A DNA stretch of 64,000 bases, taken from sequence record PZ496581.1, one strand, 5' to 3'. The stretch is from a phage. The position numbers and the translations under genes were made by a program. Below the pieces are notes generated by a model. That model made no database searches, was not told the DNA's origin, and saw only the letters and a program-made list of their open reading frames with translations. Below are positions 3,348-45,588 of this stretch, piece by piece (position 1 is the first letter of the stretch; the number at the start of each line of letters is the position of its first letter).

Positions 3348-3734
3348 TTATAGATTCGGTTTATATGATTTAAATGTTTCGAATTCGCCTTTATTCATAA
3401 GAGCTTTGAATTCGTCAGGACGCATAGCTTTGTCGTCGATAATCCAATCATATACTGGTTTATGTGTTAGCAAATTATGGTACTTCAAACCAATGTTTTC
3501 CAAGTTCTGAATCAGACTTGGGAGAATGTCAATTGCTATACGACCAGGACCTACTGACTTCATACCACGAGCAGTGTAAAGCGTTATGGTATGCCCTGCA
3601 TCATACAGGGCATTAATGGCAGACACCATTTCGACGTCTGGTTTGAAGTTCACGTAATCACGATTGTTATTCCATTCCGTGATGCAATCATCGACATCAA
3701 AACAAAGATTAAGCATGTTTTCTACACGGTGCAT
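3348..3734 (-). CDS. HAD-superfamily phosphatase, about 128 aa
   Basis: FDVDDC (motif I), TLYTARG (II), HKP (III), WIIDDK (IV); ATG at 3734 overlaps upstream stop (TAATG). Confidence 0.7.
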   Translation of the reverse strand: MHRVENMLNLCFDVDDCITEWNNNRDYVNFKPDVEMVSAINALYDAGHTITLYTARGMKSVGPGRIAIDILPSLIQNLENIGLKYHNLLTHKPVYDWIIDDKAMRPDEFKALMNKGEFETFKSYKPNL

Positions 3735-5419: not shown

Positions 5420-5460
5420 GTTGAAGTCCTCATTGGTAAGTAGGAGTATTGTACACTATT

Positions 5461-5604
5461 CTAGTTAAAGCATTCATACTTTGCTTGTAGTCCAATCATA
5501 ATCCATCCAATTACAAGTGTTGGAATCATTACCGGAGCCGTTAAGCTCCAGTAGATAGTCATGACAAGCATCAATAGTAAAAGTCCTATTGTTATTGCTT
5601 TCAT
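5461..5604 (-). CDS. small hydrophobic membrane protein, 46 aa (below ORF-track cutoff)
   Basis: Own translation MKAITIGLLLLMLVMTIYWSLTAPVMIPTLVIGWIMIGLQAKYECFN; ATGA overlap with SIS gene stop. Confidence 0.4.
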   Translation of the reverse strand: MKAITIGLLLLMLVMTIYWSLTAPVMIPTLVIGWIMIGLQAKYECFN

Positions 5605-6236
5605 TGTTCGCCTCGTAACATGGCACCTAGTGCACCGCCTGGATGGAACTTAAGGAAATCATTAGAGGTAAATCCACGTTCAGACGAAAGGTTGATAGCA
5701 AACGTATCGATAAGTGCTAACAACAATGTAGTGGACATCGTCGGAGCTAAAGAGTTCTCGTCAACTTCTACCGCGATACCGGTGCAGAACGTATAATCAA
5801 AAAGAGCTTCGTATTCTTGTGGAATGTCAGGGTTACAATGTAACAGAATCTGTTTAACCTGAGGACGAATCATACGAAGATGTTTAGCAACACCTATCAT
5901 TTCTTCAGTCTTACCAGAACGACTGATGTGAACTAATACATCATTAGGTGCAATAAATCCTGCGTCACCATGAGAATAATGCCCGGTGTTCAAATACATG
6001 CTAGGAATACCTAGTGAAGCAAAAGTCTCGGAAGCTTTAGTTGCGATATTAGCATTCTTACCAACACCTGTAATAATTACCCGGCTTTCATAATTACTAA
6101 GTCCAGGGCGTCGAAGAGTTTCTAGAATAGCATTATAACGAGCAGGGTTTTGACTAATTACTTTAGCCATAGTGGCAAGAGATGAAGCTTGTTTTACGAT
6201 TGCGTCAATAGCGATAGTAATAGGAGTAGTTTTCAT
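5601..6236 (-). CDS. SIS-domain sugar-phosphate isomerase (KdsD/GutQ-like arabinose-5-phosphate isomerase candidate), 211 aa
   Basis: ITGVGKNANIATKASETFASLGIPS...HGD...ISRSGKTEE matches the SIS phosphosugar-binding pattern. Confidence 0.8.
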   Translation of the reverse strand: MKTTPITIAIDAIVKQASSLATMAKVISQNPARYNAILETLRRPGLSNYESRVIITGVGKNANIATKASETFASLGIPSMYLNTGHYSHGDAGFIAPNDVLVHISRSGKTEEMIGVAKHLRMIRPQVKQILLHCNPDIPQEYEALFDYTFCTGIAVEVDENSLAPTMSTTLLLALIDTFAINLSSERGFTSNDFLKFHPGGALGAMLRGEQ

Positions 6237-6276
6237 ATTTCTCTCATTTAATTAGTTGGCCGTCCTTGGCATTATA

Positions 6277-8988
6277 TCAAAAATCAAACATATCGAACAG
6301 AGATGCTTTCTTCTCGTAATCGAGTTTAGCTGCTGATGTGAATCCTTCAAGTGGTTTAATAAATGTCTTCTCAAGGAGAACAGTGTAGTCCATCCAATGA
6401 AGTACATCGTCTTTAATTAAATCTGTGATTTCAGTACCAGAAGGCCATGCGATACATTTATCACCGAATGGGTTTCCTTCACGTAAAGGCAGAACATATA
6501 CTTTTTCACCTTCTACAACTTGCGGTGCATCGATATTACCTTTGATAGCCCGGTTATACGTCAGAATTCCACGAATATGGAACGGGCATTTGGGACCAGG
6601 GAATCCACCGACGTCATATTTAGCAATGTTATTCGCAGAAGATACCGACGCGATGCTAATATAATTCAACTGACGGAATTCTTTTTCAAACTCTTTAAAA
6701 TATTCTTGTAATGATTCTTCACCTTCCTGAAGCATACGACGAATACATTCCTTAAGAGCTTTCTGTACTGCTTTAGGAGTCGAAGATTTCTGTGTTTCGA
6801 GACCCATGATTTTAAGCTTAGGTTCAGCGTATCTGGTTCCTTCCATATCCCATACATTCAAGGCATAACGTTTCTTACCTGTCCAAAATCCGCCAATACC
6901 TTTAGAACCAAGCGGAGGCCCAGCGATAGCTTCTCGGTCCATGAACATTAAGTGTTGTTTATTGTTCATGTATTCACACATTTCACGGAAACCTCTATCA
7001 ATAGCTGGTTCCATACGTTCACGTGCAAACTTATCTAAGAAGTCTACCCAATGGTTGGTATCACGGAATTTAGATTCACCAACCTTATCGATAATTTTAT
7101 CGGCAGATACGTAAATAGAGTCTGTATCACCATAAAGAACGAAAGCTTCACCTTCTGTACCACAAACTTCATTCAGATATTCATTAACTTTACGTTCAAT
7201 CCACTGTAAAGCCATTTGTCCGAATGTTGTGATTGCAGTAGCATTACGCAAATCATAATAACGGAACCAAACGTTTCCAAGTGCACCATAAAGTGAGTTG
7301 ATGAGCAATTTACGGTTAATTTGTGCAGTCATACCTGCAACTTCAGTACGTTGAGCTCTAAACAACATTTCATTAAGAGATTTAGCAGACAACTTTTTAA
7401 TCTTTTCTTTAATCTCATCGCTGAAGTCGAAACGATAATCAACATCTAATGGTTCGTCAACAGAAAGATTAGGATTATGCAATGCCTCTTTAATTATTTC
7501 ACCATTACGTTGAGCTGCAAGCATGTAACCTTTATGTTCTTTACGTTGATTAAAGACCTTAGTGATTTCAGTTGGAACTACACCATCACGGTCTTTATAA
7601 TACATCATGCCGTTAGGAGAACAACTGTACACATCTGAAGGACGTTCAGCGATTGCGTTAATATAATCATGCAATGGAGCTACTTTAAACGTTCCTGCTA
7701 TTGTTTCCGGGCTAATATTCACTTGGCGAATAATACTTGGATACAGAGATGTAAGGTCGAAACTCATTACATATTTGTATCGATTTGGAATAGGTTCCTT
7801 AACAAAAGCGCCAGGATAAGGTTGAACCGGGTGAGAACGACCTTGTGGAATCACCTTGTTCTGTTCTTTAAGGCTATTAAAAATAATAGCATCCCATGTT
7901 TTAATTGGGCCAAACACAGATTGAATCTGTATCTTAGCATAATAACCCATGTCCAAACTCAAGTTGATGAACTGACGCTTAGCATCAATTTGCAATACAC
8001 GATACACATCGATAATGTTATAAGAAATATATCGTTGGTGATTGCTTTCACGAAGTTTAGAAATAGGGCCGTCATATTTCAGTTTACCAACGTTCAATTC
8101 AAATTCTGAAATGTAATCCAGAGAATACGATGGTTGATTGGTAAAAGAGAATTTTTTGTAAAGGTCAATGTAATCAAGAACAGAGATACCGAACAATGTA
8201 ATGATTTCACGAGAACCATACATGTTTTCGATAACTTTAACACGAGTTTTACGATGTGGTGATAAACGTTTCGCAGTAGATTCGCCAAAAATATTCTTGA
8301 TTCGGTTATACACATATGGAATATCGAATGACTCAACGTTCCATCCAGTCAAAATGACAGGAGTTTTCTGTTGCCAGAAGTTGAGATATTCCATCAACAA
8401 TTCTTTTTCGTTATCGAACGGTATATAAATGATTTTATCGATAATTTCGGATGGAACTTCATCACCACCTTGTTCTTGAAGCTTAGCCGCAATTTCGATA
8501 GACCATTCTTCTACATTACCATACGGAGAATTCAATAGATCAAATACGTAGAACCTGTCGTCAATTGAGTCATAATGGGTGATAGCATCAATCGGATGTT
8601 TTGCTTGTGATGGCTCAGGGAACCCATCCGGAGATGTTACTTCGATGTCGAAGTTAGCCACACGAATTTTTGTATGGTCGTATTTGATTTCATAGTTATA
8701 AGTGTCAGACAAATACGCCAATTTGAAATCGTCCATACCAAGTGCTTCAAGTCCGATATCTTCCATGCGTTTAATCCATTGGGAGGCATCACGCATATTA
8801 GCGAACAACTTACGAGTACACGGCTTACCGTAGATATCGAAATATTTCGTAGCCTGACTTTCTGGACAATGAGCAAACAGTGATGGTTTATATTCTACTT
8901 CACGAGTACGTTCACGGCCATTAGAATCGATGTAACGTTCAAAAATTGAATCACCAATCTGTTCAACCGTTAAGTAAAATTCTTTCAT
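6277..8988 (-). CDS. 43: DNA polymerase gp43 (family B), 903 aa
   Basis: Near-identity to T4/RB69 gp43 as recalled; exo motifs FDIE, NIIDV; YGDTDS polymerase motif. Confidence 0.97.
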   Translation of the reverse strand: MKEFYLTVEQIGDSIFERYIDSNGRERTREVEYKPSLFAHCPESQATKYFDIYGKPCTRKLFANMRDASQWIKRMEDIGLEALGMDDFKLAYLSDTYNYEIKYDHTKIRVANFDIEVTSPDGFPEPSQAKHPIDAITHYDSIDDRFYVFDLLNSPYGNVEEWSIEIAAKLQEQGGDEVPSEIIDKIIYIPFDNEKELLMEYLNFWQQKTPVILTGWNVESFDIPYVYNRIKNIFGESTAKRLSPHRKTRVKVIENMYGSREIITLFGISVLDYIDLYKKFSFTNQPSYSLDYISEFELNVGKLKYDGPISKLRESNHQRYISYNIIDVYRVLQIDAKRQFINLSLDMGYYAKIQIQSVFGPIKTWDAIIFNSLKEQNKVIPQGRSHPVQPYPGAFVKEPIPNRYKYVMSFDLTSLYPSIIRQVNISPETIAGTFKVAPLHDYINAIAERPSDVYSCSPNGMMYYKDRDGVVPTEITKVFNQRKEHKGYMLAAQRNGEIIKEALHNPNLSVDEPLDVDYRFDFSDEIKEKIKKLSAKSLNEMLFRAQRTEVAGMTAQINRKLLINSLYGALGNVWFRYYDLRNATAITTFGQMALQWIERKVNEYLNEVCGTEGEAFVLYGDTDSIYVSADKIIDKVGESKFRDTNHWVDFLDKFARERMEPAIDRGFREMCEYMNNKQHLMFMDREAIAGPPLGSKGIGGFWTGKKRYALNVWDMEGTRYAEPKLKIMGLETQKSSTPKAVQKALKECIRRMLQEGEESLQEYFKEFEKEFRQLNYISIASVSSANNIAKYDVGGFPGPKCPFHIRGILTYNRAIKGNIDAPQVVEGEKVYVLPLREGNPFGDKCIAWPSGTEITDLIKDDVLHWMDYTVLLEKTFIKPLEGFTSAAKLDYEKKASLFDMFDF

Positions 8989-9016
8989 TTAATTTCCTTT
9001 AGACGAGTTATTGTCT
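8989..9016 (-). promoter_or_regulatory. candidate gene 43 translational operator (hairpin AGAC-8 nt loop-GTCT plus SD AAAGGA)
   Basis: Hairpin and SD directly 5' of gene 43 ATG; T4-family gp43 autoregulates through such an operator. Confidence 0.4.
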
Positions 9017-9035
9017 TTTGTTTGTTGATGAACTT

Positions 9036-9063
9036 ATTATACTCCAAATGGGACCGAAGTCCC
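9036..9063 (-). promoter_or_regulatory. -10 TATAAT plus GGGAC-UUCG-GUCCC hairpin between regA and gene 43
   Basis: Minus-strand TATAAT at 9036-9041; tetraloop hairpin 9050-9063. Confidence 0.4.
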
Positions 9064-9069
9064 ATTGCT

Positions 9070-9438
9070 TTAATTACCAATTGTATATTTTGCTTTCAAA
9101 GTCCAGTCATCTTTCTGTTTAAAAGAGATAACACGGAAGTTATTAGTCAGGCCAAACAGATCTTCACGAGCAGAGTCTTCAATAACAATCAAGCCCCAGT
9201 CTTCAAGCAACTGAGCAATCGAATCACGTCGCTGATAGTCTTCACCATCAATATCAACCTGACGTCCGTCCATACGCAGCATTTCTTTAAAGTGGACGAT
9301 GTAATATTTACCTTGCTTTTGGAGGATATGACAGGACTGATAAAGAACTTTATCCTTGTTATTAGCGATGCCCATACGGGTCAGAGTCTCTTTGACTTTC
9401 AGAAAATCTTCGGGGTTCTTCAATTTAATTTCGATCAT
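9070..9438 (-). CDS. regA: translational repressor RegA, 122 aa
   Basis: MIEIKLKNPEDFLKVKETLTRMGIANNKDKVLYQSCHILQK matches T4 RegA as recalled; start trimmed to MIEI. Confidence 0.9.
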   Translation of the reverse strand: MIEIKLKNPEDFLKVKETLTRMGIANNKDKVLYQSCHILQKQGKYYIVHFKEMLRMDGRQVDIDGEDYQRRDSIAQLLEDWGLIVIEDSAREDLFGLTNNFRVISFKQKDDWTLKAKYTIGN

Positions 9439-9440
9439 TT

Positions 9441-10004
9441 TTACCATTCCAATGCTAATTTTTTAAATTGTTTTTGTTCTTTCACATTTTTTGTAACTTC
9501 TTTGAGAAACTCATCAGTGACCATGGCCTTCAGTTCTTTAAGGACTATTGGCAACTTGTTATTTTTTTCAAGGAGCCGCTTATACTCGGTAGCATCATTC
9601 ATGTTGATTGTGTAATGTTTCATCAACAGTTTGATAACTAGTAACTCTGAAGTGTCTTCGACTAGTTTAGCCCATTTAGAGAATCGTCGGCCACGTGGAA
9701 TTGCCGCCATCATATAGTTGAAGTGCGCTTCATCACTTAATTCAGAACCGACTAAGTTCATCATGTAAACGGCTGGCATACATTCTGGGAACTGGGATAA
9801 TGAGTTCTCAACCATAAATTTTGAGTAGTCGACCTGAGCAATTGACATAGATTTCTTTTCATTAATAGCATTAATGATTTTAAAGAATTCATTCTCAGGT
9901 TTTTCTTTAAACATGTCAGCACATTTTTGAATCGCATCAGCGTCGTTAGACTTCCATGCAATTTGGTGCTCGTTAAGTTGGACGTCATCATCAAATAAGT
10001 TCAT
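9441..10004 (-). CDS. 62: clamp loader small subunit gp62
   Basis: 187 aa; position between regA and 44. Confidence 0.85.
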
Positions 10005-10005
10005 A

Positions 10006-10968
10006 TTATTTCCAAGTCAGTTCGCAGGTCAGTTGAAGAAGCATATACATAACATGTAATTCAATATTACTTGCTAATCCATGAAACTTATTATTTTCGC
10101 CTGCAATTTCATAAAGCGAAATAATACTTTTACCTGGTGCAACTTTGTCATAACACTCAGAAACTAATTTATCGATGAACCATGAATAATCAGCGGCATA
10201 TTTTGGAGCTAACGCACGAAGCTGTTTGATATCTTTATTTTTCATTGCTTCTATGACATCATCTACCGTGCCACGATCATTGGTTACAATCGACAAAATA
10301 CCTGCATCAAGAACACCTTTAGACGAGTACTGGTCTAATTGACCAATTGTACGTCGAAAGTCCGGGAAGTTCTTTTTAACCAGAGCTGCAACAACTTTCA
10401 TATCAGCGATTTCGATATTTTCATTCTTACAGATTTCAACCATACGATGAATCATTTTCTTCATCATTGAGATTTTATCTTCTTCGGTTGGACGTCCGAA
10501 TTCGATAACTCGACAACGACTACGTAATGGTTCAATAATTCCATCGATGTTGTTGGCAGTAATAATAATAGAACAGTTACTAGAGAATTCTTCCATGAAT
10601 GTACGAAGGTGACGTTGTGATTCGGCGAGGCCACTACGGTCAAATTCATCAATAACAATAACTTTAGGTTTGCCTTCCATTGAGACTGAACGAGCGAATG
10701 CAGTTAACGGACCACGCACAAAATCAATCTTACAATCAGAACCGTTGACGAACATCATTTCGGCATTGATATCATTACATAATGCTTTTGCTACGGTTGT
10801 TTTACCTGTACCAGGAGAAGGAGAGTGCAAAATAATATGAGGAAGTTTTCCTTTAGATACTAAAGACTTGAATGTTTCATGGTCATACGCGGGCAGAATA
10901 CATTCGTCAATGGAAGAAGGACGATATTTCTGTTCTAGAATGTGTTCTTTGGAATTGATAGTAATCAT
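10006..10968 (-). CDS. 44: clamp loader large subunit gp44 (AAA+)
   Basis: Walker [11 protein letters not shown]; Walker B VIVIDEFD; 320 aa. Confidence 0.92.
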
Positions 10969-11043
10969 GTAATTTTCCTCATTATCATTAAACTGGAGGA
11001 TTTCTCCTCCATAATCGTATCACAATAAACGTAAAGCTTTGAC

Positions 11044-11730
11044 TTAGAAGTCGTGAGTAGAATCGGCTTCCATCGCAATAACATAACTTACTTGAGAGCT
11101 TTCAAACTTGGCTGCAACTTTATCACCAGCTCCCCACAACATTACTTTATAGTTACCTGGCTGGATTTTCATATTAGCCATATTGATTACGAAGTTAAAG
11201 TTGTTAGAACCATCATAATCGGTAAGAGTTAAAGAATACTTAGGACGAGTTAGTCCAGAATCTTCAACTTTATTATAGCCATTGATAACAATTTTACCAT
11301 CTTTATTTGTAATAGCAATTGTATCAATCTGAAGACCACGTGAAACTCGAAGCAATTGTTGAAGGTCTTCAACTTTAATTTCAGTAATCACAGAAGCCAC
11401 TGGGAATTGAATTGGCTTATTAGGAAAAACAATGGTGCTCTTGTCGGCAGCAGGCCAATAAACTGTGGAACGTGTATCTGCAATTTTAATATTGCCATCA
11501 GTGTGCATTGAAATTTCAGCATCATCAGACACTAGACTCAAAATGCTTAAGAAGCTATTCAAATCATAAAGTGCTACGTCAAAATCAATTTCATCAGAGA
11601 TATTTGCTTCCGCATAAGTGGTGCCATTAACTGCACGAGTCATAATAAATTTACCTTGACTCAGCAGAATGCCAGAGTTAATAGAGGCAAAGTTTTTCAG
11701 AATAGCGATAGTATCTTTAGACAGTTTCAT
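11044..11730 (-). CDS. 45: sliding clamp gp45
   Basis: MKLSKDTIAILKNFASINSGI matches T4 gp45 N-terminus; start trimmed to MKLSKD. Confidence 0.9.
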   Translation of the reverse strand: MKLSKDTIAILKNFASINSGILLSQGKFIMTRAVNGTTYAEANISDEIDFDVALYDLNSFLSILSLVSDDAEISMHTDGNIKIADTRSTVYWPAADKSTIVFPNKPIQFPVASVITEIKVEDLQQLLRVSRGLQIDTIAITNKDGKIVINGYNKVEDSGLTRPKYSLTLTDYDGSNNFNFVINMANMKIQPGNYKVMLWGAGDKVAAKFESSQVSYVIAMEADSTHDF

Positions 11731-11772
11731 TTTATTTCCTTTCAAGACAATTCAAAGTTTATAACAAATTTA

Positions 11773-12189
11773 TTATGCAGCAACCATCTGCTTTTTAATA
11801 GCTTCAGGCAGTGATTCAATATATTCTGGAATTTTAGAAGCAACAATTTCGCCAGCTGCAATTAGTTGTTCGTCGGCATCAACACAGTAGAAATCTTCTA
11901 GACGCTCAGAACCATCTTTATCAAGAACGATTTTTCCGCCGGCTTCAATAGAATCTTTATAGTGCTTACGCATCAGATGAATCCACATATCAGATACATC
12001 GTTATCAATAAAACCATAAATCATAAAACGAGTTTCTTGTGGCAAAGATTGGAGTTTTTTAGCACTTGCGTCATCACAATGCAGGACCCATGCTTTACGA
12101 ACACGATTATGGTTATGTGGGTTAGCGTCAGTACGGATAGAAGTAACTTTCAGATCAGCAGCAGTGAAACCTTTAGCAGTAGTAAACAT
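11773..12189 (-). CDS. rpbA: RNA polymerase binding protein RpbA-like, 138 aa
   Basis: Size and position immediately upstream of gene 45. Confidence 0.6.
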   Translation of the reverse strand: MFTTAKGFTAADLKVTSIRTDANPHNHNRVRKAWVLHCDDASAKKLQSLPQETRFMIYGFIDNDVSDMWIHLMRKHYKDSIEAGGKIVLDKDGSERLEDFYCVDADEQLIAAGEIVASKIPEYIESLPEAIKKQMVAA

Positions 12190-12201
12190 ATTATTTCTCT
12201 C

Positions 12202-12402
12202 TTATTCGTAGAAGTCGGTAACTGTCCATGCAGAATTGCGATTAGACGTTATTTTATTATACTCATCTTTAAAAGCAGATTTGAGCATTTGTTCAGTAAC
12301 AATATGTTCTTCACCTGAAAACGTATTGGTCAAAACATATTTTTTAATTTCAGGGGCAACTAGAAGATGTTGTCCGGTTGAATACTCCATGTTGTTCTCC
12401 AT
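12202..12402 (-). CDS. hypothetical protein, 66 aa
   Basis: ORF track; position of T4 45.2. Confidence 0.45.
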   Translation of the reverse strand: MENNMEYSTGQHLLVAPEIKKYVLTNTFSGEEHIVTEQMLKSAFKDEYNKITSNRNSAWTVTDFYE

Positions 12403-12444
12403 TTAATTTGATGTGGTCATTATAACCACATCGTGTTAAAGCGT

Positions 12445-14133
12445 TTATGAAACAGTCATTACCGTAAATCGTCCAACTTTGCTCATTTGAAGATGTTGTC
12501 CATAACGTTGAGGGTCATGGTCTCGATGAGAGATAATGAACACGTTAGTATTTTGTAAACTTCCAAGAATAGTATCTATAGCCTTAACAGCTTCAGAATC
12601 TACAGCGCCGTCAAAAACCTCATCAAGAATCAACGTGTTGATTTTAACACCAGAGACCTTTTCAGCAATATCTCGCCATGTAAACAACAATGCGATATCG
12701 ATACGCGCTTTTTCGCCTTGACTAAATGAAGCATAACTAAAATCTTCACGGCCACGTGATTTTATAGATTCATTGAATTCTTCGTCAATAGAAAACACGT
12801 AATCAGCTTCCATGATTTTAAGATAATGGTTAATCTGCTTGTTGAACAGAGGCACATATTTTTTAATGATAGCACCTTTAATACCAGAATCTTTTAACAT
12901 ATCTGTGATAATACCACGATGGTATTTTTCAAGAACGATATCTGATTTTGTTTTAATGATTTTATCAAGTTCTTTTTGAAGCAAAGCTATCTCATCGGCA
13001 TGGTCGATAAATTCAGCCGAGGCTTGTTCTATTGCAGCTTTAACTTTCTTAGCTTTATCAATAGTGGCAATCATTGCTTGTTTCTTGGTACGAATATCAG
13101 ATGCAAGGTCCTGTTTAGTCTTAACATTAGCTCTATATTCGTCCACTAGGACACTCAGATTATCTCTGTGACATGTAAGTTGCTCGAATGAGTGATTACA
13201 TTCGTGAAGCTTATCGGTAATCTTAGAGACAATAGGATCACCCTGGTGCAACTGTGATGCACAAGTAGGACATGTACCACCATCATGATACATCTTAATA
13301 ACTTTGTTATATGAGTCAATTTTAGATTTAATCAAGAATGCTTCTTGTCCGATCTTGTTGAACGCCTCAGTAGGGTCTTCGTCAAGAACGATATTAAGTA
13401 GACGCTCGTTAGCTTCTTCAATTTCTGCTTTTAATGAACGAGCTTCTTTGGCTAGGTCGTCATACATATTCTGTAGACGCGCTACATTATCACCAGATAA
13501 TTTCTTTTGACGTTCGATATTCTCGTTATAAATCTTAATTTGTTGGATAACACCATCTTTCTTGGCATCGAGAACTTGTCCCTGGGAATTAAGTTCTCGA
13601 ACTTGAGACTTATTGATTTTATCCATTTCAGCGAGTGTGCCGACTTCTAAAAGGTCTTCGACAAGTTTTCTACGAGCAGGGGTGCTAAGAGCCATGAAAG
13701 GGGTATACCCTGCCGTCCCAAGCACAACGATTTGTTTAAAAGACGCGTATGACATTCCGATGCTACGTTCAAATTCTTCTTGGAAGTCACGACTGCTGGC
13801 AGATTCATCAAGACGAACACCGTCAACGGAGATTTCGAAAATATTGGGCTTTTGGCCACGTCTAATGAAGTATTTTTTATCATCGAATTCCATCCAAAGC
13901 TCAACTAAGAGCTCTTTCTTGTTCGTGCTATTAATGATTTGTCCTTTCTTAACATCACGAAATGGTTTACCGAAAAGTCCGAAAGTAATGGCTTCTAACA
14001 TCGTAGATTTACCACCGCCATTTTTACCAGTGATTAATGTCTTTTGGACTTTATCTAATTGGATATCAATAGGATTCCCACCTACCGACATGATGTTTTG
14101 ATAACGAACACGATTTAATTTAAATGATTTCAT
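12445..14133 (-). CDS. 46: recombination endonuclease subunit gp46 (Rad50/SbcC-like ATPase)
   Basis: Walker A GKNGGGKST; coiled-coil middle; 562 aa. Confidence 0.93.
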   Translation of the reverse strand: MKSFKLNRVRYQNIMSVGGNPIDIQLDKVQKTLITGKNGGGKSTMLEAITFGLFGKPFRDVKKGQIINSTNKKELLVELWMEFDDKKYFIRRGQKPNIFEISVDGVRLDESASSRDFQEEFERSIGMSYASFKQIVVLGTAGYTPFMALSTPARRKLVEDLLEVGTLAEMDKINKSQVRELNSQGQVLDAKKDGVIQQIKIYNENIERQKKLSGDNVARLQNMYDDLAKEARSLKAEIEEANERLLNIVLDEDPTEAFNKIGQEAFLIKSKIDSYNKVIKMYHDGGTCPTCASQLHQGDPIVSKITDKLHECNHSFEQLTCHRDNLSVLVDEYRANVKTKQDLASDIRTKKQAMIATIDKAKKVKAAIEQASAEFIDHADEIALLQKELDKIIKTKSDIVLEKYHRGIITDMLKDSGIKGAIIKKYVPLFNKQINHYLKIMEADYVFSIDEEFNESIKSRGREDFSYASFSQGEKARIDIALLFTWRDIAEKVSGVKINTLILDEVFDGAVDSEAVKAIDTILGSLQNTNVFIISHRDHDPQRYGQHLQMSKVGRFTVMTVS

Positions 14134-14384
14134 ATGTATTCTCTTCGAATGAAGTCCTCTACATATTTTAACATGTCATCTCTATCAGCAAAATATTCAT
14201 CTAGTTCCGCATACATAACAACACCTGGTGCATACTCACAGGTAACATACATTGTTCCAAAGAAACGAGGAGTTGATTCCTCGTAATTCTCAGTCCATTC
14301 AACGATACCAATATAACCGTCACCAATACTAAATTCATGACGATGGATTTCATAATCAGTCTTCGTCATTATACGCATCCTCAA
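14130..14384 (-). CDS. hypothetical protein, 84 aa
   Basis: ORF track; between 46 and 47. Confidence 0.5.
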   Translation of the reverse strand: MRMRIMTKTDYEIHRHEFSIGDGYIGIVEWTENYEESTPRFFGTMYVTCEYAPGVVMYAELDEYFADRDDMLKYVEDFIRREYI

Positions 14385-14613
14385 TACACGCTTCAGCCAT
14401 TTTAAGAATAGAGCCGGGAGTATCGTTGTCCATTATATTAAAGCTAAATTCAATAGCCCAGTCGGTGCAGACATGAACTGCTTTAACTTCATTGCCTTCA
14501 ACGCGTAATGGCTCAATCCAATACTTGATGGTGTTCTCGAATCCATCATCATCTTTAACGTCTATTTCAACTTCAAGCCCGAGCCCAGCATTGTTAAATT
14601 CATCTAAAGTCAT
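14356..14613 (-). CDS. hypothetical protein, 85 aa
   Basis: ORF track; between 46 and 47. Confidence 0.5.
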   Translation of the reverse strand: MTLDEFNNAGLGLEVEIDVKDDDGFENTIKYWIEPLRVEGNEVKAVHVCTDWAIEFSFNIMDNDTPGSILKMAEACIEDAYNDED

Positions 14614-15629
14614 TGTGTTGCCTCAATATAAAGTTCGTTGGAATATTTGACCAGCGCTTCTCTGTCTTCGTCTGAGATATCTGGAATCGCGTCAATATAT
14701 TCTTTAATGATATCTTGAAGTGATTTAATCTCGATTTCCTGGTCATCATCAGATTCAACACTGTTATCAACTTTAGAAACCATACGAAGAGAGTGAACTA
14801 CTTTTTCAAGTTCAGATTCAAACTTAGTCAACTCTGAATCAATTTCTGATACTATAACACGTACGGCTAGATTAGTATAATCAGAATAATTAATTTTGCC
14901 TTTAAACGGATAAGTGATTCGTCGATGCCATGTTGTTTCATTAGGAATAAATTCCATACGTTCAACATCAGTGTCAAATACCCAGAATCCGCGTGGGTCG
15001 TTCTCATCGCCTGCAGTAAGGGTCCATGGTGTCCCAATATATTTGACGTTAGCAGCTTCAGAGATTGTGTGGAAGTGGCCGGACCAGACTTGTTTATAGG
15101 TCTTTAAGAAATCAGGTTCAAGCCCATGAGACTTCATTCCTTTATAGAAATAGAAGCCATTTAATTCCCAGTGACCAACACAATATGCGGCAGAAGAAGT
15201 CTTGATGTGCTCTAAGATTTCACCTGTATTTTCTTCACACATCCATGGAATGATATCAATCAGACATCCGTCAAAATCTACAGTAGTTGGATGTTCGTAA
15301 ATAGTAAAGTTTTCAAATTGAGTTAACAATTCAGAAACAGTGTTAGGTGTTATTGTATTCTTAAACGCCATGTCATGGTTTCCTATCGTGACATGAACGT
15401 GAATGCCTGCTTTAGAAATCATATCAACGATTTCACGATTGAATTCCATTGTACGATGTGTTATTGCTTTACGGACGTCAAACCAATCGCCGTACTGAAT
15501 CCAAGTTTTAATCCCGTGTTTCTTAGAGTATTCAATTGCTTGACGAATACCATCACGTTGAATATCTTGAATCCATGGGTCGTCTTGTTTGACTCCGATA
15601 TGGAAGTCGCCTAAGTGCAAAATTTTCAT
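14610..15629 (-). CDS. 47: recombination endonuclease subunit gp47 (Mre11/SbcD-like)
   Basis: MKILHLGDFHIG phosphoesterase motif I, GNHD motif; 339 aa. Confidence 0.93.
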   Translation of the reverse strand: MKILHLGDFHIGVKQDDPWIQDIQRDGIRQAIEYSKKHGIKTWIQYGDWFDVRKAITHRTMEFNREIVDMISKAGIHVHVTIGNHDMAFKNTITPNTVSELLTQFENFTIYEHPTTVDFDGCLIDIIPWMCEENTGEILEHIKTSSAAYCVGHWELNGFYFYKGMKSHGLEPDFLKTYKQVWSGHFHTISEAANVKYIGTPWTLTAGDENDPRGFWVFDTDVERMEFIPNETTWHRRITYPFKGKINYSDYTNLAVRVIVSEIDSELTKFESELEKVVHSLRMVSKVDNSVESDDDQEIEIKSLQDIIKEYIDAIPDISDEDREALVKYSNELYIEATQ

Positions 15630-15673
15630 ATTATTTCCTCATTAGTTAATTCATTCTATCATCCGTTTATAAA

Positions 15674-15700
15674 GCAAAAAAGGAACTCCGAAGAGTTCCT
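15674..15700 (-). terminator. rho-independent terminator (AGGAACUC-UUCG-GAGUUCCU plus U-tract)
   Basis: Hairpin 15681-15700 followed on minus strand by TTTTTTGC. Confidence 0.6.
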
Positions 15701-15911
15701 ATCCACATAGTACACCGTACAGAGGCTCATTTGAACTTTTAAATCGAATGGGCTTGTACGTAATAGTTCCTTCGGCTTTAGCTTTATCATAAGACTCTTT
15801 AAAACGTCTCATTCTTTCTGCTTTGCCTTTACGGATTTTATCGAAATTTTCAGAAGTCGGGATGTTCGTCATGCATAAGCACCTCTCAGAAAATGCCTAA
15901 ATCAATTTCTC

Positions 15912-16118
15912 TCATCGTTTCCACCATTTCTTAACTTGAAATGAATCGACCCACACGAGTTGTTTTGGGTCTGCCTTTACAATAGGCGGACAAATTTCTG
16001 TAATAGAACCGTCGTGATATTCCTTTTCAGAAATTTTAACACAAAGAGGACCTCCCAATTTAAGGGTGAACCCTGCGTTCAGCTTCAGACGTTTAAACTT
16101 TGTTTGAACTAGCGCCAT
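15912..16118 (-). CDS. hypothetical protein
   Basis: ORF track, start trimmed to ATG 16118. Confidence 0.4.
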   Translation of the reverse strand: MALVQTKFKRLKLNAGFTLKLGGPLCVKISEKEYHDGSITEICPPIVKADPKQLVWVDSFQVKKWWKR

Positions 16119-16416
16119 TAATGATGTCCTCAATAGCCTGACGAGTAGTAACCCACTGGATTTTAATTAACTTGTCATTATATGGTTGTCGTAGAATATC
16201 CCGAGATTTCTTAATAGCATATTCGTAAGCTTCGAAGTTGTTTTGAATTGCTGCTTCTTGAGCATGAGCATAAAGACGGTTTAGTTCAAAACGATTCTTT
16301 TTAAGAATCTTTTCGGATTTTTTACGTGCTTCAGCTTCATTTTTCTTTTGGATTTCTTGTAGCATTTTAGCTACTGCATCTTCTGCTTCTTTATTTTCAA
16401 TAATCTCGGTAGTCAT
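16093..16416 (-). CDS. hypothetical protein, 107 aa
   Basis: ORF track. Confidence 0.5.
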   Translation of the reverse strand: MTTEIIENKEAEDAVAKMLQEIQKKNEAEARKKSEKILKKNRFELNRLYAHAQEAAIQNNFEAYEYAIKKSRDILRQPYNDKLIKIQWVTTRQAIEDIINGASSNKV

Positions 16417-16417
16417 A

Positions 16418-16633
16418 TTATCTCATTAAATTAAAATAAAAACGTCCATCCTCTTCAATACAGAACTCGTACTCAACCGGAGTCCCATTTATCGAAAATG
16501 ACACGTCATGTGGGTTCAAAGGGTCGATGTCAAAATTAATTTTAAATTCTCGACCCAACAGTTTTACCAAATAAGGGATTGCTTCGTCAAAAGGTTCTTC
16601 TAAGTAGTTAGAGATGTCAATTGTCATCCTCAT
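16418..16633 (-). CDS. hypothetical protein
   Basis: ORF track, start trimmed to avoid overlap with gene 55. Confidence 0.45.
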
Positions 16634-17192
16634 ATAAAAAATCCAAACTAGGCGAATCGCTAACAACTTCCTTCTTTTCAGCCCCAGGAGCTTTATAAGC
16701 GGATTCTTCATAATGCGTCATTTTATCGTAGATGTCTTGAATAAACGTTTCATCTACCAACGCTACCATATCATCGTCATGACTGTCGTAGACATTATGA
16801 ACGAAGTAACTATATTTCTTTGCAACTTCCTTACGTTCTTTTTTGATACGTTGGACAAAAGCATTAAAACAAGCTCGAGTTATGTATGCATGTGGGTTAT
16901 TGTACTTAGTTTCGTCGAAATTATGAAGTCCCTTAATAGAGGCTTCAATCCCATCTGCAATCATCTCCTGTTTCCAAGACTGGGTATATCCTGAAAAGTT
17001 GAAACGTTTGGACAGGCCTTCGGCGATAAGCATAATTGCTAAACCGATGGTATCATTCTGACGAATAATTTTGTTTGGGTCTTTATTATTTAAGAGCTCC
17101 TTTTTCCACTCGATTATAGCGGCGAGAAGCTCTTTATTATTCACATAGTTATTTTTAGGTTTTTGTTCAGTCATAAGTACCTCTTGGCTCAA
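16617..17192 (-). CDS. 55: late-transcription sigma factor gp55
   Basis: [20 protein letters not shown]...[23 protein letters not shown] matches T4 gp55 as recalled. Confidence 0.93.
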
Positions 17193-29516: not shown

Positions 29517-29547
29517 CTACTTTTTAAAAATATTTTAACCCCCTAAA

Positions 29548-29564
29548 GGGACCCGAAGGTCCCC
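29548..29564 (-). terminator. GGGACC-UUCG-GGUCCC hairpin (terminator-like)
   Basis: Stable tetraloop hairpin downstream of ORF 29625..29834. Confidence 0.4.
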
Positions 29565-29624: not shown

Positions 29625-29834
29625 CTACTCGGCCCTTTGACCATGCTTCAGTTGCTTGTCCGGCCGTGCTATTAATATAGCTTGATTTAAGTTCTCAATA
29701 CCCTGAGAATGTGATGCATTTACCGAACCATTGGAAGGCCCAGAAGACTGGTTACCACCAGCTCCTGCACCTGTGGTAGCACCAACAGAGAATGCCATCA
29801 TTACTGCGAATAAACCAATTACTAATTTTTTCAT
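29625..29834 (-). CDS. small secreted/lipoprotein-like protein, 69 aa
   Basis: N-terminal signal-peptide-like MKKLVIGLFAVMMAFSVGA then Gly/Ser/Asn-rich tail. Confidence 0.45.
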   Translation of the reverse strand: MKKLVIGLFAVMMAFSVGATTGAGAGGNQSSGPSNGSVNASHSQGIENLNQAILIARPDKQLKHGQRAE

Positions 29835-29865: not shown

Positions 29866-30852
29866 TTATTTATAGTAAGAATTATGATTTTCGAGATAGA
29901 CTTGCTCAAGGAAATCATCCCAGAAACTCATATCTACTTTTTGTTGCATACCGTTCTTAGCGGCTTGTTCTGACGCATGTTCAACTTGGTCAACGATATC
30001 TTCTAGGAATTCTTGTACAGTTTTAAACGTATGTTTACCAAGCTTAACATCGAGAATAAATGGAGCATCCTGAAGTGGGTAAACCAGGTCGCCGGTTTTG
30101 TAAATTTCCAATAATTGAAGTCCACCACGACATGCATGACTCAATGCTTTCCAGTCAATACCTTCGTTGGCTTCCGCCTTACGAGCACGTTCACCGTAGT
30201 TCTCTTCCAGTTTAACCAGGATGGCATTGAACTCTTTATTGGTTAACGTATCTTGGAATTTACGATCTAACAGATTATAGAATGTTTGCTTACCTGTTTT
30301 CTCGTTTTCGGTTTCAACCCACGAAGCAAATTCACCTACAGGCAGAACATTCTTCATATGTGATAAACGAATTACTGCACCGTTATCAAAGTATTGTCCC
30401 CATTCATTAGAACGTTTAAGGGCTTGACGAAGAACAGCCAGTCGAGAACCCTTGACGCCGTATTTAGAAGCTTGCTTACGGACATACCCTAAATAAGATT
30501 TCATGTTAGTGGTATAGAAACGAGACCTGTTATCTTGAATATACTTCCATACATCAGGCAAATCAGATTTAACTACTAGACTTTGTGGAGTGTGAAGCAT
30601 ATCTAATGCGACGGTTTCACCATCCGCGGCTAGTTTAAAGAAATATTTGAGACTATACAACTCATGGTCCACGTCGTCTTTTGTGTTCTTAGAAGATGTG
30701 TTATTCGTGTTCTTGCTCATGTGTTCTTTAACGTTACCGGTCAAGATATCACGAGCATGAGGGACATAAATTTCTTTAAAATCGACGTCAGATTCAGGAG
30801 TAGACGTTCCATAAAGGTGGCTACCAAAGTAAGCCTTAACAATAGTTTTCAT
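29866..30852 (-). CDS. Pol-beta-superfamily nucleotidyltransferase, 328 aa, unknown substrate
   Basis: GSHLYGTSTPESDVD (GS...DxD) with a third acidic residue in ALDMLH; C-terminal helical region. Confidence 0.65.
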   Translation of the reverse strand: MKTIVKAYFGSHLYGTSTPESDVDFKEIYVPHARDILTGNVKEHMSKNTNNTSSKNTKDDVDHELYSLKYFFKLAADGETVALDMLHTPQSLVVKSDLPDVWKYIQDNRSRFYTTNMKSYLGYVRKQASKYGVKGSRLAVLRQALKRSNEWGQYFDNGAVIRLSHMKNVLPVGEFASWVETENEKTGKQTFYNLLDRKFQDTLTNKEFNAILVKLEENYGERARKAEANEGIDWKALSHACRGGLQLLEIYKTGDLVYPLQDAPFILDVKLGKHTFKTVQEFLEDIVDQVEHASEQAAKNGMQQKVDMSFWDDFLEQVYLENHNSYYK

Positions 30853-31618
30853 TATTCACTTTCCTTTCATAATCTTCAATGAACTGTAATATTAAGCGTT
30901 GGTAATTTGATTTAGGATAACCCATTTTACTAATATGGGTTCCGAAAGCCCCACGCTTAGGTCGATTCAATTTAATCCAAAGTTCGTAAAGCATATCATA
31001 ATCTTCCCAGTGTTTACCAGTTCGTTGTCTAGCTTTAGACGCTTCAGACTGTCTCTTTTTAGTTTCTGGATTATCTAGGGCCTTTTTAACAGCTCTTGAA
31101 TGCCGTTCTTTAACATCATCTCTCTTAAAGGCCTCTTTGATAGCAGTAGATATTTTTGCTTTAACTTCAGGTCTATTCTGTGCCTCTATTTGAGAATCTG
31201 ACATTTTAGCCTTTATCTCAGGGAGGCTCATGGTCGCTGAACGCTTATCACGATATTCTTGTGATTCCCATATATCTTTCATTCTATTAGAGTGAATTTC
31301 TGAAAACTTTTCCCTTACGTCTTTATAGCCTCTTGAGGTTAATTTAAGATTTCGTCCTAAAGCATCTTCGCCTAAATTATAGAACGCCCAGTAAGCGTAA
31401 ATCAATCCGTCGGAGTTTGGGTGAATTTTTGATAATAACCAATGAGCGATAAAATGTTCCCTGGCAGTCAATAAAACTTTATTACTCGGGTCATCACTCC
31501 CTCCAATACATGAAGGGATTATGTGATGGGATTCAGTATAATAATTCAACTCAGACTTATCACTGCCTCTAAGTTTTCCTCGTTGAATTATTGCATCATA
31601 ACATTTGATATAATTCAT
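30836..31618 (-). CDS. HNH homing endonuclease (MobD-like) with NUMOD-type repeats, 260 aa
   Basis: ESHHIIPSCIGGSDDPSNKVLLTAREHFIAHW HNH motif; repeated basic helix motifs in C-terminal half. Confidence 0.75.
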   Translation of the reverse strand: MNYIKCYDAIIQRGKLRGSDKSELNYYTESHHIIPSCIGGSDDPSNKVLLTAREHFIAHWLLSKIHPNSDGLIYAYWAFYNLGEDALGRNLKLTSRGYKDVREKFSEIHSNRMKDIWESQEYRDKRSATMSLPEIKAKMSDSQIEAQNRPEVKAKISTAIKEAFKRDDVKERHSRAVKKALDNPETKKRQSEASKARQRTGKHWEDYDMLYELWIKLNRPKRGAFGTHISKMGYPKSNYQRLILQFIEDYERKVNNENYC

Positions 31619-44635: not shown

Positions 44636-44711
44636 TGGTGCCTCTAGAAAGATTTGAACTCTCACCATTAACCTTAGAATGATTATATGCTATCCATTAC
44701 ACTATAGAGGC
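44636..44711 (-). tRNA. tRNA-Arg (anticodon TCT)
   Basis: Hand-folded cloverleaf: acceptor GCCTCTA/TAGAGGC, anticodon loop ATTCTAA, T-loop TTCAAAT, encoded CCA; 76 nt. Confidence 0.8.
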
Positions 44712-45362
44712 AATTAAATTATTTACAATATCTTCTTTATAAACTTCAGCATAATGAAGTTCATATATTTCCCATCCTAATGATTTTATAATATCATGGC
44801 GTTCTTTATAATAAGGGGCCAAAATCTTTTTCTTAGGATTGGAGTAATGTTGATTTCCATTAACTTCAATAATAATCTTTTTATCTATTAAAGCGATATC
44901 CGTGCAATACGCTCGGTTTTTAACCGGTTGGTATTCTTCAATAAATGAAATTCCGTTTTCTATTAATTTAGATTTCAAAAATTCACAAGGCACAGATTTA
45001 AATTTTGTATTTTTCTTCCAAGGATGTTTATCGGGGTTTTCATTCAACCATTTTTTCCGAGCATTAGATATTTTTATTCTAGATTCCTCAGAGTGTTCTC
45101 TACCTAATGAAGCGGCTGACAATTTTTGTCTAGTCTCTTCCGAAATTACTACAGGAACACCAGTCTTTTTAGATACAACATACTGGTTTAAATTACCTGA
45201 AGCTATACGTGCTTTATTCATTGCTGCAATGGCTGATTTAGAACTTTCTTTATACAATTCCAATTTAGGGTTGGATTTACACCATCTAGTGTGGTTAGCC
45301 ATCCATCCTTTAGGTTTATTAGAAATATCAAATTCCATATTACAATGTTTACAAATGCTCAT
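44697..45362 (-). CDS. freestanding endonuclease-like protein (N-terminal Zn finger, NUMOD-like repeats, C-terminal DUF559/Vsr-like nuclease motif), about 221 aa
   Basis: CKHC...HTRWC; IALIDKKIIIEVNGNQHY motif; lies inside the tRNA cluster; stop overlaps tRNA-Arg 3' end. Confidence 0.55.
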   Translation of the reverse strand: MSICKHCNMEFDISNKPKGWMANHTRWCKSNPKLELYKESSKSAIAAMNKARIASGNLNQYVVSKKTGVPVVISEETRQKLSAASLGREHSEESRIKISNARKKWLNENPDKHPWKKNTKFKSVPCEFLKSKLIENGISFIEEYQPVKNRAYCTDIALIDKKIIIEVNGNQHYSNPKKKILAPYYKERHDIIKSLGWEIYELHYAEVYKEDIVNNLIASIV

Positions 45363-45372
45363 TACCAATTAT

Positions 45373-45390
45373 CTCCTATAAATATAGGAG
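45373..45390 (-). promoter_or_regulatory. perfect 8-bp palindrome CTCCTATA-aa-TATAGGAG over the endonuclease RBS
   Basis: Hairpin would sequester the AGGAG SD of the 45362 ATG. Confidence 0.45.
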
Positions 45391-45435
45391 TATTTATTAT
45401 TTGGATAGAGCACTTAATTTACTTCGTTTAAATTA

Positions 45436-45507
45436 CTGGCGCACTTGGACTCGAACCAAGATAAAGGAGTTAACAGCTCCCCGTAATAACCTTTATACGA
45501 TGCACCA
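45436..45507 (-). tRNA. tRNA-Asn (anticodon GTT), no encoded CCA
   Basis: Hand-folded: acceptor TGGTGCA/TGCGCCA, anticodon loop CTGTTAA, T-arm CTTGG-TTCGAGT-CCAAG; 72 nt. Confidence 0.6.
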
Positions 45508-45513
45508 TTTGTT

Positions 45514-45588
45514 TGGTGACCCTGGCTGGTTTCGATCCAGCTACCTATCAGTTATGAGCTGACAGCTCTCCCATTGAGCTACAGGGCC
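45514..45588 (-). tRNA. tRNA with CAT anticodon (elongator Met or Ile2), encoded CCA
   Basis: Hand-folded: acceptor GGCCCTG/CAGGGTC, D-arm GCTC-AATGGGA-GAGC, anticodon loop CTCATAA; 75 nt. Confidence 0.8.

Follow-up and report, generated by a model that had tools for sequence, protein, structure and literature searches.

Repair of cleaved tRNAs by Pnkp and the RNA ligase Rnl1 was discovered in the T-even phages. RloC, which excises the wobble nucleotide, was proposed in 2008 to defeat repair by T4 Pnkp and Rnl1 (PMC2610378). The characterised members of the family to which the gene considered here belongs are two Pseudomonas enzymes of the RlaP type, PfRlaP and PaRlaP, which are encoded between rtcB and rtcA and were described in a preprint of December 2025 (PMC12776372). 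The gene itself is a minus-strand open reading frame (ORF) in a 64,000-nucleotide stretch of phage DNA (sequence record PZ496581.1; the whole stretch is called the window below) and is the ortholog of T4 nrdC.11. We propose, with a probability of roughly 0.6, that its product is a template-independent RNA 3'-end nucleotidyltransferase (NTase) of the RlaP family, which would act together with the phage Pnkp and RNA ligase in the repair of nuclease-trimmed tRNAs.

Both Pseudomonas enzymes label E. coli RNA and neither DNA nor protein. They add one or two nucleoside monophosphates (NMPs), or dAMP from dATP, to RNA 3'-OH ends, with a preference for Mn2+ and for the 5' half of a cleaved-tRNA mimic. 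For a tRNA from which one nucleotide of the anticodon loop was absent, they partly restored aminoacylation. The crystal structure of PfRlaP comprises an NTase domain and a helical domain, the C-terminal helix packing back onto the NTase domain. In the network of PF10127 sequences presented in the same work, T4 NrdC.11 falls in cluster 5 and the enzymes studied fall in cluster 1a (all PMC12776372). An RNA-repair role for the family had been predicted in 2016 by Burroughs and Aravind, as reported in later papers, and nrdC.11 orthologs had been placed among the COG3541 nucleotidyltransferases in 2006 (PMC1524935). The gene, its T4 ortholog, the fold and the family are already on record, and the biochemistry of the family was reported in 2025. 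An earlier reading of the window, made from the letters alone (the sequence-only reading), had described the substrate as unknown. That description is outdated given the PF10127 assignment, the COG3541 placement, the prediction of 2016 and the RNA 3'-OH activity of two bacterial members.

The nrdC.11 ortholog and its nucleotidyltransferase core

The window is DNA of a Mosigvirus, an RB69-like T-even phage; Mosigvirus coliphages, among them mobillu, p000v and APCEc01, match it at 98-99% identity. In the ORF list of the window the gene runs from ATG to stop over exactly 29866..30852 and encodes 328 aa (Table 1). The protein is 78% identical end to end to T4 NrdC.11 (NP_049709, 336 aa, RefSeq product 'nucleotidyltransferase'), whose gene is placed between nrdC.10 and mobD. 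The flanking genes of the window correspond: the product of the downstream gene is 77% identical to T4 NrdC.10 and that of the upstream HNH gene 74% identical to T4 MobD. The mobD stop and the nrdC.11 start overlap by 17 nt in the window as in T4. The sequence-only reading had rightly located the gene in the nrdC-tk region, where it is oriented like its neighbours within the block, but it held that T4 has nothing similar at this position. That statement, on which its claim to novelty rested, is wrong, since the ortholog, the neighbours and the 17-nt overlap all match and nrdC.11 fills exactly that slot. It is practically certain that the ORF is an ordinary Mosigvirus ortholog of T4 nrdC.11 and a member of its family. 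Purifying selection acts on the gene, as shown by low ratios of nonsynonymous to synonymous substitution rates (dN/dS) in comparisons with T4 (0.11), phage APCEc01 (0.06) and an Acinetobacter phage (0.22).

A Pfam scan gave a single match, to PF10127 RlaP ("RNA repair pathway DNA polymerase beta family"), with 49.4 bits against a gathering score of 23 (E=6.5e-13); the match aligns aa 6-151 of the protein with positions 23-148 of the 249-position profile. The gathering score is also exceeded in 74 of 75 relatives (35-52% identity), and in PHROGs the protein belongs to phrog_388, 'nucleotidyltransferase' (E=2e-125). The further marks of RlaP membership are present as well, namely the hG[GS] motif, the [DE]x[DE] motif and a third carboxylate on a neighbouring strand. 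The N-terminus reads MKTIVKAYFGSHLYGTSTPESDVDFKEIYVP, which places G-S at residues 10-11 and D-x-D at residues 22-24.

Conservation was assessed in two alignments, one of 75 relatives at 35-52% identity taken from a 50%-representative search, and one of 20 phage and bacterial relatives reaching down to 28% identity. Residues G10, S11, S21, D22, D24, D62, Y131, R222, K235, R242, K270 and G272 are invariant in the former; the catalytic residues G10, S11, D22, D24 and D62 are again invariant in the latter. The assignment to the Pol-beta superfamily and the N-terminal GS...DxD signature, both put forward in the sequence-only reading, are borne out by the PF10127 match and by these alignments, in which the catalytic acids are retained. 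The third acidic residue had been placed about 60 residues downstream. The invariant one is D62, 40 residues beyond D22, while the residue near +60, D84, lies in a helix; it is near-invariant among closer relatives and is replaced by E in the homologs from phages phiN3 and MD18 and from the loci L137 and L154.

An AlphaFold2 model built on the 75-sequence alignment (mean predicted local distance difference test score, pLDDT, 94.1; predicted template-modelling score, pTM, 0.85) shows a predicted two-domain fold. The N-terminal alpha/beta domain has strands at 2-9, 23-30, 44-48 and 61-67; the GS turn comes after the first of these, DxD begins the second and D62 is located on the last. The C-terminal domain is mainly helical and ends in a helix at aa 308-327. 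A helical domain of about 230 aa had been anticipated from the letters, and this stands except that a small three-stranded sheet is predicted within it at aa 176-200. The most conserved pattern of this domain, picked automatically for scans of sequence collections, is the motif at residues 231-242, in which G231, D233, W234, K235, H239 and R242 are conserved. We infer from this conservation that the motif may contact RNA or the nucleoside triphosphate (NTP).

Table 1 Features of the nrdC.11 ortholog and of its surroundings (positions in the window)
Feature	Position	Strand	Basis
nrdC.10 ortholog, 333 aa	28470..29471	-	PHROG 1250; synteny with T4
Terminator-like GC hairpin followed by T-rich tract, 3' of nrdC.11 and of the small ORF	29537..29553	-	Consensus scan only
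Small ORF, 69-aa peptide	29625..29834	-	PHROG 2243
nrdC.11 ortholog coding sequence, RlaP-family (PF10127) Pol-beta nucleotidyltransferase	29866..30852	-	ORF, T4 synteny, PF10127, PHROG 388, dN/dS
Codons ~99-328, C-terminal mainly helical domain	29869..30558	-	AlphaFold2 secondary structure, conserved columns
Codons 231-242, GIDWKALSHACR, most conserved motif of the helical domain	30127..30162	-	Invariant and near-invariant columns
Codon D62, third catalytic carboxylate	30667..30669	-	Invariant columns; AlphaFold2 strand 61-67
Codons 10-24, G10-S11 (hG[GS]) and metal-binding carboxylates D22-x-D24, NTase active site	30781..30825	-	Alignments, AlphaFold2
Shine-Dalgarno-like AAGGAA, ~9 nt 5' of ATG, within the mobD 3' end	30861..30866	-	Read from sequence
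mobD ortholog (HNH homing endonuclease)	30836..31618	-	Synteny with T4
Predicted membrane protein, 158 aa	31615..32091	-	PHROG 944
Three tRNA genes (Arg-TCT, Asn-GTT, Met-CAT)	44636..45588	-

Comparison of the model with the PDB by Foldseek returned only weak matches (E ~2e-3, template-modelling score (TM) 0.27-0.37). ANT(4')/kanamycin nucleotidyltransferase was at the top, with LinB lower down; the uncharacterised NTase-like 3c18 and Hailong HalB were also matched. PDB sequence searches with the protein and with a 76-sequence profile gave nothing meaningful, and a profile of the N-terminal 140 residues had no match at E<=10. Many phage proteins among the predicted viral structures of BFVD have the full-length fold, the highest TM being 0.77. 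Whole-protein matches in BFVD that are weak but significant also include nucleotidyltransferases of giant viruses (Klosneuvirus, Terrestrivirus, Yasminevirus) and baculovirus HE65.

The ANT(4') and LinB matches, together with a marginal NCBIfam MntA match over the GS motif (E 0.058), would fit an enzyme that nucleotidylates a protein or a small molecule, as do MNT antitoxins or the aminoglycoside and lincosamide nucleotidyltransferases. We regard this as extremely unlikely. The weak structural scores reflect the common minimal NTase fold plus a helical domain, the MntA match reaches 13.3 bits against a cutoff of 60, and no HEPN partner gene adjoins. PfRlaP did not modify E. coli proteins (PMC12776372), and there is no rationale for an antibiotic-modifying enzyme in a lytic phage. 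MntA antitoxins of type VII toxin-antitoxin systems were rejected on the sub-threshold score, the missing HEPN gene and the length of the protein, 328 aa against about 106 profile positions.

None of the other families suggested by the sequence-only reading is supported either. Class II CCA-adding enzymes were rejected because the protein matches neither PF01743 nor PF12627, whereas the true CCA enzymes encoded beside relatives of the clade do match. CD-NTase/cGAS-like enzymes were rejected when judged by sequence or fold similarity and by a linked effector gene, and the OAS assignment was rejected as well. Outside that set, HalB was rejected when judged by sequence homology and by an adjoining HalA channel gene.

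RNA-repair genes around the T4 clade in bacteria

The Pfam model covers only the N-terminal half of the protein and the characterised enzymes belong to another subfamily; the gene neighbourhoods of the T4 clade itself were therefore examined. A scan of one genome per species yielded 80 loci with full-length relatives (27-52% identity). Neighbouring ORFs were clustered, and the conserved clusters were identified by Pfam and then mapped by tblastn. Genes of RNA repair or tRNA-end metabolism are located within 8 kb in 32 of the 80 loci, mostly adjoining the homolog and on the same strand; one of the 32 was counted on an RtcR match alone, 6.9 kb away. The neighbours are RtcB (9 loci), RtcA (2), a bacterial Pnkp ligase domain and/or Hen1 (8), T4-type Pnkp by a kinase or phosphatase match (5), T4-type Rnl1 (3), Ro60/TROVE (6), class II CCA-adding enzyme (7) and HD_4 phosphohydrolase (6). 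Each of these genes normally occurs at most once per genome, by estimate, so a rate of 40% within 16 kb is far above chance. In bacteria, linkage to RNA-repair genes extends beyond the Pseudomonas-type clade to the T4 clade, whose members occur in RtcB, Pnkp/Hen1 and Pnkp/Rnl1 gene clusters; this is the new result of the work.

Two loci reproduce the T4 tRNA repair kit. In L096 (80-4023) and L150 (1135-6195) the genes for T4-type Pnkp and T4-type Rnl1 come after an NrdC.11-like gene of the same orientation; together the three genes form a compact 'add, heal, seal' cassette, the T4 kit plus this NTase. Both are short metagenomic contigs, binned as a Bathyarchaeota metagenome-assembled genome (MAG) and as an unclassified bacterium, and they may be viral.

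A large cluster was observed in a Nitrosospira contig (L105; CAADGK010000054.1, ~3400-17000), where RtcR, Ro60/TROVE, RtcB, RtcA, a T4-clade RlaP, Hen1 and Pnkp are encoded together. Two normally separate repair systems, RtcBA and Pnkp/Hen1, have one RlaP in common here. The RlaP match extends over 1380 nt for 324 aa and may carry an insertion.

A further group of neighbours points to tRNA ends. The CCA-adding enzyme is directly upstream of the homolog on the same strand in six of the seven loci that have it. In L161, L162, L163, L170 and L154 (Campylobacteraceae and Sulfurovum MAGs) the RlaP gene sits directly 3' of it, and the remaining loci are single Paceibacterota and Cellvibrionaceae MAGs. 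In the alphaproteobacterial loci L106, L111, L113, L139 and L149 the RlaP gene adjoins or overlaps an ORF for the HD_4 phosphohydrolase. These pairings suggest tRNA 3'-end work or removal of a 3'-phosphate. They argue for a different task, repair or maturation of the tRNA acceptor end: where exonucleases or toxins have trimmed tRNAs of the host or the phage, nucleotides at or beside CCA, such as the discriminator base or part of the CCA, would be restored, and the anticodon loop would not be involved. The HD_4 gene adjoins in six alphaproteobacterial loci, one phage homolog (that of MD18, below) lies inside a tRNA array, and PfRlaP labels full-length tRNA-sized RNAs and single-stranded 3'-OH ends (PMC12776372), all of which would be consistent with such a task. 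We nevertheless judge it unlikely: more loci tie the clade to RtcB, Pnkp/Hen1 and Rnl1, enzymes that internal breaks require but 3' tails do not, and RlaP does not have the NTP specificity required to rebuild CCA.

Phage context and a possible role in tRNA repair

By tblastn the gene was found in 1568 phage records, from T4-like phages of Escherichia, Klebsiella, Aeromonas, Acinetobacter, Vibrio and others. A phmmer search of 1.84 billion cluster representatives gave 3274 clusters at E<=1e-3, of which 750 reach E<=1e-30; among the matches listed for the latter, the majority span nearly the full length. Repair partners are observed in phages also. Mosigviruses encode Pnkp (~74% identity to T4) and Rnl1 (~67%) elsewhere in the genome. 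Counts per host genus in the phage collection hardly differ between NrdC.11, T4 Pnkp and T4 Rnl1 for Escherichia, Klebsiella, Shigella, Aeromonas, Acinetobacter and Enterobacter. The homolog of Sinorhizobium phage phiN3 lies between two RNA ligase genes, and on several distant viral contigs Rnl1 or Pnkp is encoded no more than 10 kb from the homolog. In Phaeobacter phage MD18 (L007, 900-10300) 16 tRNA genes form an array with the homolog at its centre, and a tmRNA-like gene (3938-4346) was called by ARAGORN some 650 bp upstream of the homolog. Linkage to tRNA genes among 28 distant loci examined is sporadic (MD18, L067, L071) and was not used as general evidence.

In the mechanism that we propose, D22, D24 and D62 would hold two divalent metal ions, probably Mn2+ as in the characterised members, together with the NTP. 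A broken RNA would receive one or two NMPs at its 3'-OH, untemplated and from any NTP. This RNA may sit in a cleft formed by the NTase domain and the basic helical domain, and conserved basic residues of the latter (R137, R222, K235, H239, R242 and K270) could grip its 3' end. The step would fall between removal of the 2',3'-cyclic phosphate by Pnkp (PseT) and sealing of the nick by Rnl1 or Rnl2. Nucleotides trimmed from tRNAs cleaved by host RloC-type anticodon nucleases would in this way be restored, and a fraction of the religated tRNAs would be functional again. By analogy with the Pseudomonas RlaPs, members of another subfamily, RNA 3'-nucleotidyl transfer by the window protein is likely. 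The specific counter-defence role against RloC-type nucleases is a more tentative hypothesis, to which we give somewhat less than an even chance.

Several observations weigh against the proposal. Neither rnlA nor pseT is present in the 64-kb window and the T-even gene is not beside an RNA ligase, so that the neighbourhood expected of an RlaP is found for the clade (the 32 loci above) and not in the window. The co-occurrence of NrdC.11, Pnkp and Rnl1 among phages is confounded by common ancestry within the Straboviridae. The half of the protein beyond the Pfam model, the C-terminal domain, differs from that of typical RlaPs and probably decides the substrate. The likeness to PfRlaP was drawn from the Pfam profile and the published description, and the preprint lists T4 NrdC.11 as a family member but 'of unknown function' (PMC12776372). 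RlaP discriminates little between NTPs, and for that reason the right base would return in only a minority of the repaired tRNAs (PMC12776372). T4 mutants without the nrdC.11-mobD.3 block are viable in the laboratory (PMC9825161); because the block can be deleted there, any function must be conditional.

The place of the gene in the nrdC-tk block, in its neighbours' orientation and with no adjoining repair genes in T-even phages, would also suit an enzyme that puts short untemplated 3' tails on host or phage mRNAs or small RNAs, altering their stability in the course of host takeover with no link to repair. PfRlaP and PaRlaP label many E. coli RNAs, including rRNA-sized bands, with any NTP (PMC12776372), as such an enzyme might. 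It is nonetheless quite improbable, for addition ends after one or two nucleotides, which makes a poor tag for degradation or stabilisation, the bacterial contexts of the clade are specifically RNA repair operons, and the conserved neighbour clusters listed show no link to an RNA decay factor.

NrdC.11 is a plausible third enzyme of the Pnkp/Rnl1 pathway, one that would answer RloC-like nucleases, which remove a nucleotide and do not merely cut. The bacterial neighbourhood data strengthen the case for a simple genetic test in T4. As a discovery the gene matters little; it was known before and does not represent a new type of enzyme.

The other genes of the region add observations of their own. 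The PHROG 944 gene, whose product carries the annotation 'host takeover', is present in 47 of 82 viral loci, mostly T4-like and including Acinetobacter phages at 27% identity, and in most of them it lies ~0-2 kb upstream of nrdC.11 (viral loci L010-L087). T4 lacks it, as does every one of the 80 bacterial loci, and it was rejected as an obligate partner on these grounds; its placement probably reflects conserved gene order and not an obligate partnership. The nrdC.10 ortholog has a P-loop, GAAGIGKT, and a Walker-B-like LLIDDVD, and its matches to AAA families of Pfam are sub-threshold only. nrdC.10 comes after nrdC.11 in 35 of the 82 viral loci, never does so in the 80 bacterial ones, and was likewise rejected as a functional partner; it seems confined to T4-like phages.

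The upstream membrane protein loosely echoes the HalA-HalB pair, and HalB makes template-free poly-dA (PMC13434031). The gene might by this token encode an enzyme of oligonucleotide or nucleotide-signal synthesis, for instance of HalB-like protein-primed or free oligo-dA, whose product would be a decoy keeping a host effector silent or a second messenger. dATP is efficiently accepted by PfRlaP (PMC12776372). The idea is very unlikely to be correct: the likeness to HalB is at the level of the fold only (TM ~0.3), the full-length and N-terminal profiles miss HalB, no PADLOC model matches the protein, the membrane protein is not shared by T4 or the bacterial loci, the family's contexts are RNA repair operons, and PfRlaP labelled neither protein nor DNA (PMC12776372). 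A stricter form, to which we give slightly less credence still, is that NrdC.11 is not a repair enzyme at all but a primer-independent or self-primed oligonucleotide synthase with a product that silences host defence as decoy or signal; oligo-dA, for example, might be replenished to keep a HalA-type channel closed, perhaps with the preceding small membrane protein. This version arises because the T4 clade shares only the NTase half with the characterised RlaPs and the closest solved structure is Hailong HalB.

The DNA of mobD in the window was matched by only three phage records in a megablast search (BEU50, a20 and NRG-P0074). The adjoining NTase gene was matched by 145 records at 95-99% identity, and in APCEc01 the membrane-protein gene directly abuts the NTase gene without mobD. 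This distribution suggests that mobD is a mobile element of sporadic occurrence, inserted at the site that it also occupies in T4. Between nrdC.11 and nrdC.10, the small ORF specifies a peptide whose N-terminus resembles a signal peptide. Relative to its 88-aa counterpart in APCEc01 it has a 1-nt deletion (GAGAAC-TTAAAT), which shifts the frame and truncates the product; no counterpart was found in the aligned T4 nrdC.10-nrdC.11 spacer (~115 bp). The hairpin beyond the small ORF is the probable end of the transcription unit ahead of nrdC.10, as placed by a consensus scan of the sequence. An Rfam scan found no RNA element in or near the NTase gene, the only hits being the three tRNAs about 14 kb away; in the corresponding region of APCEc01 only tRNA-Met and tRNA-Arg are annotated.

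Annotation of the orthologs is uneven. Many GenBank and UniRef entries carry the label 'thioredoxin', and an alternative label of NP_049709 is 'uncharacterized 38.9 kDa protein'. No thioredoxin domain is present in the window protein, the Pfam scan giving RlaP only; this widespread error was evidently carried over from the locus name nrdC.11, nrdC being the T4 thioredoxin gene. T4 mobD.4 is similarly labelled 'molybdopterin-guanine dinucleotide biosynthesis protein MobD' in RefSeq. The nrdC.11 gene of the T4 record NC_000866 (55435-56445; 13436-14446 of locus L001) contains an ambiguous base that gives X at residue 106 (SDLPDXWKF).

Comparison with known systems

HalB (PDB 9dbh), at 16% identity, has no sequence-level relationship to the window protein, and the similarity is confined to the fold. 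HalB has 217 aa, is tetrameric and makes poly-dA primed on its own tyrosine (PMC13434031); its partner gene, the HalA channel, and its genomic context are different. Class II CCA-adding enzymes and poly(A) polymerases, which carry the PF01743 head domain, are alike in adding to RNA 3' ends without a template within the Pol-beta superfamily, and they are neighbours of the clade in 7 loci. They differ in that the window protein does not match PF01743 and has a different helical body; RlaP, moreover, shows little NTP specificity and stops after one or two additions.

T4 NrdC.11 is the positional ortholog, with the same gene order nrdC.10 - nrdC.11 - mobD and the same PHROG 388. The window protein is 8 residues shorter, with two 4-residue gaps in the variable region aa 150-170. 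The window further differs from T4 in the extra ORF for a small secreted peptide between nrdC.11 and nrdC.10 and in keeping the PHROG 944 membrane protein gene 5' of mobD, which T4 does not have.

PfRlaP and PaRlaP belong to a different subfamily (cluster 1a, against cluster 5), only the N-terminal ~150 residues of the window protein align to the Pfam model, and the T-even gene stands without the adjoining ligase of the Pseudomonas genes. The common ground is a Pol-beta NTase core with three conserved aspartates that passes the gathering threshold. PfRlaP by its published description has an N-terminal NTase domain and a C-terminal helical domain; the same order of domains is predicted for the window protein, whose terminal helix (aa 308-327) may be the counterpart of the PfRlaP helix that packs back onto the NTase domain. 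Like the Pseudomonas enzymes, relatives of the T4 clade are encoded in operons of RNA repair, with RtcB and RtcA or with Pnkp and Hen1.

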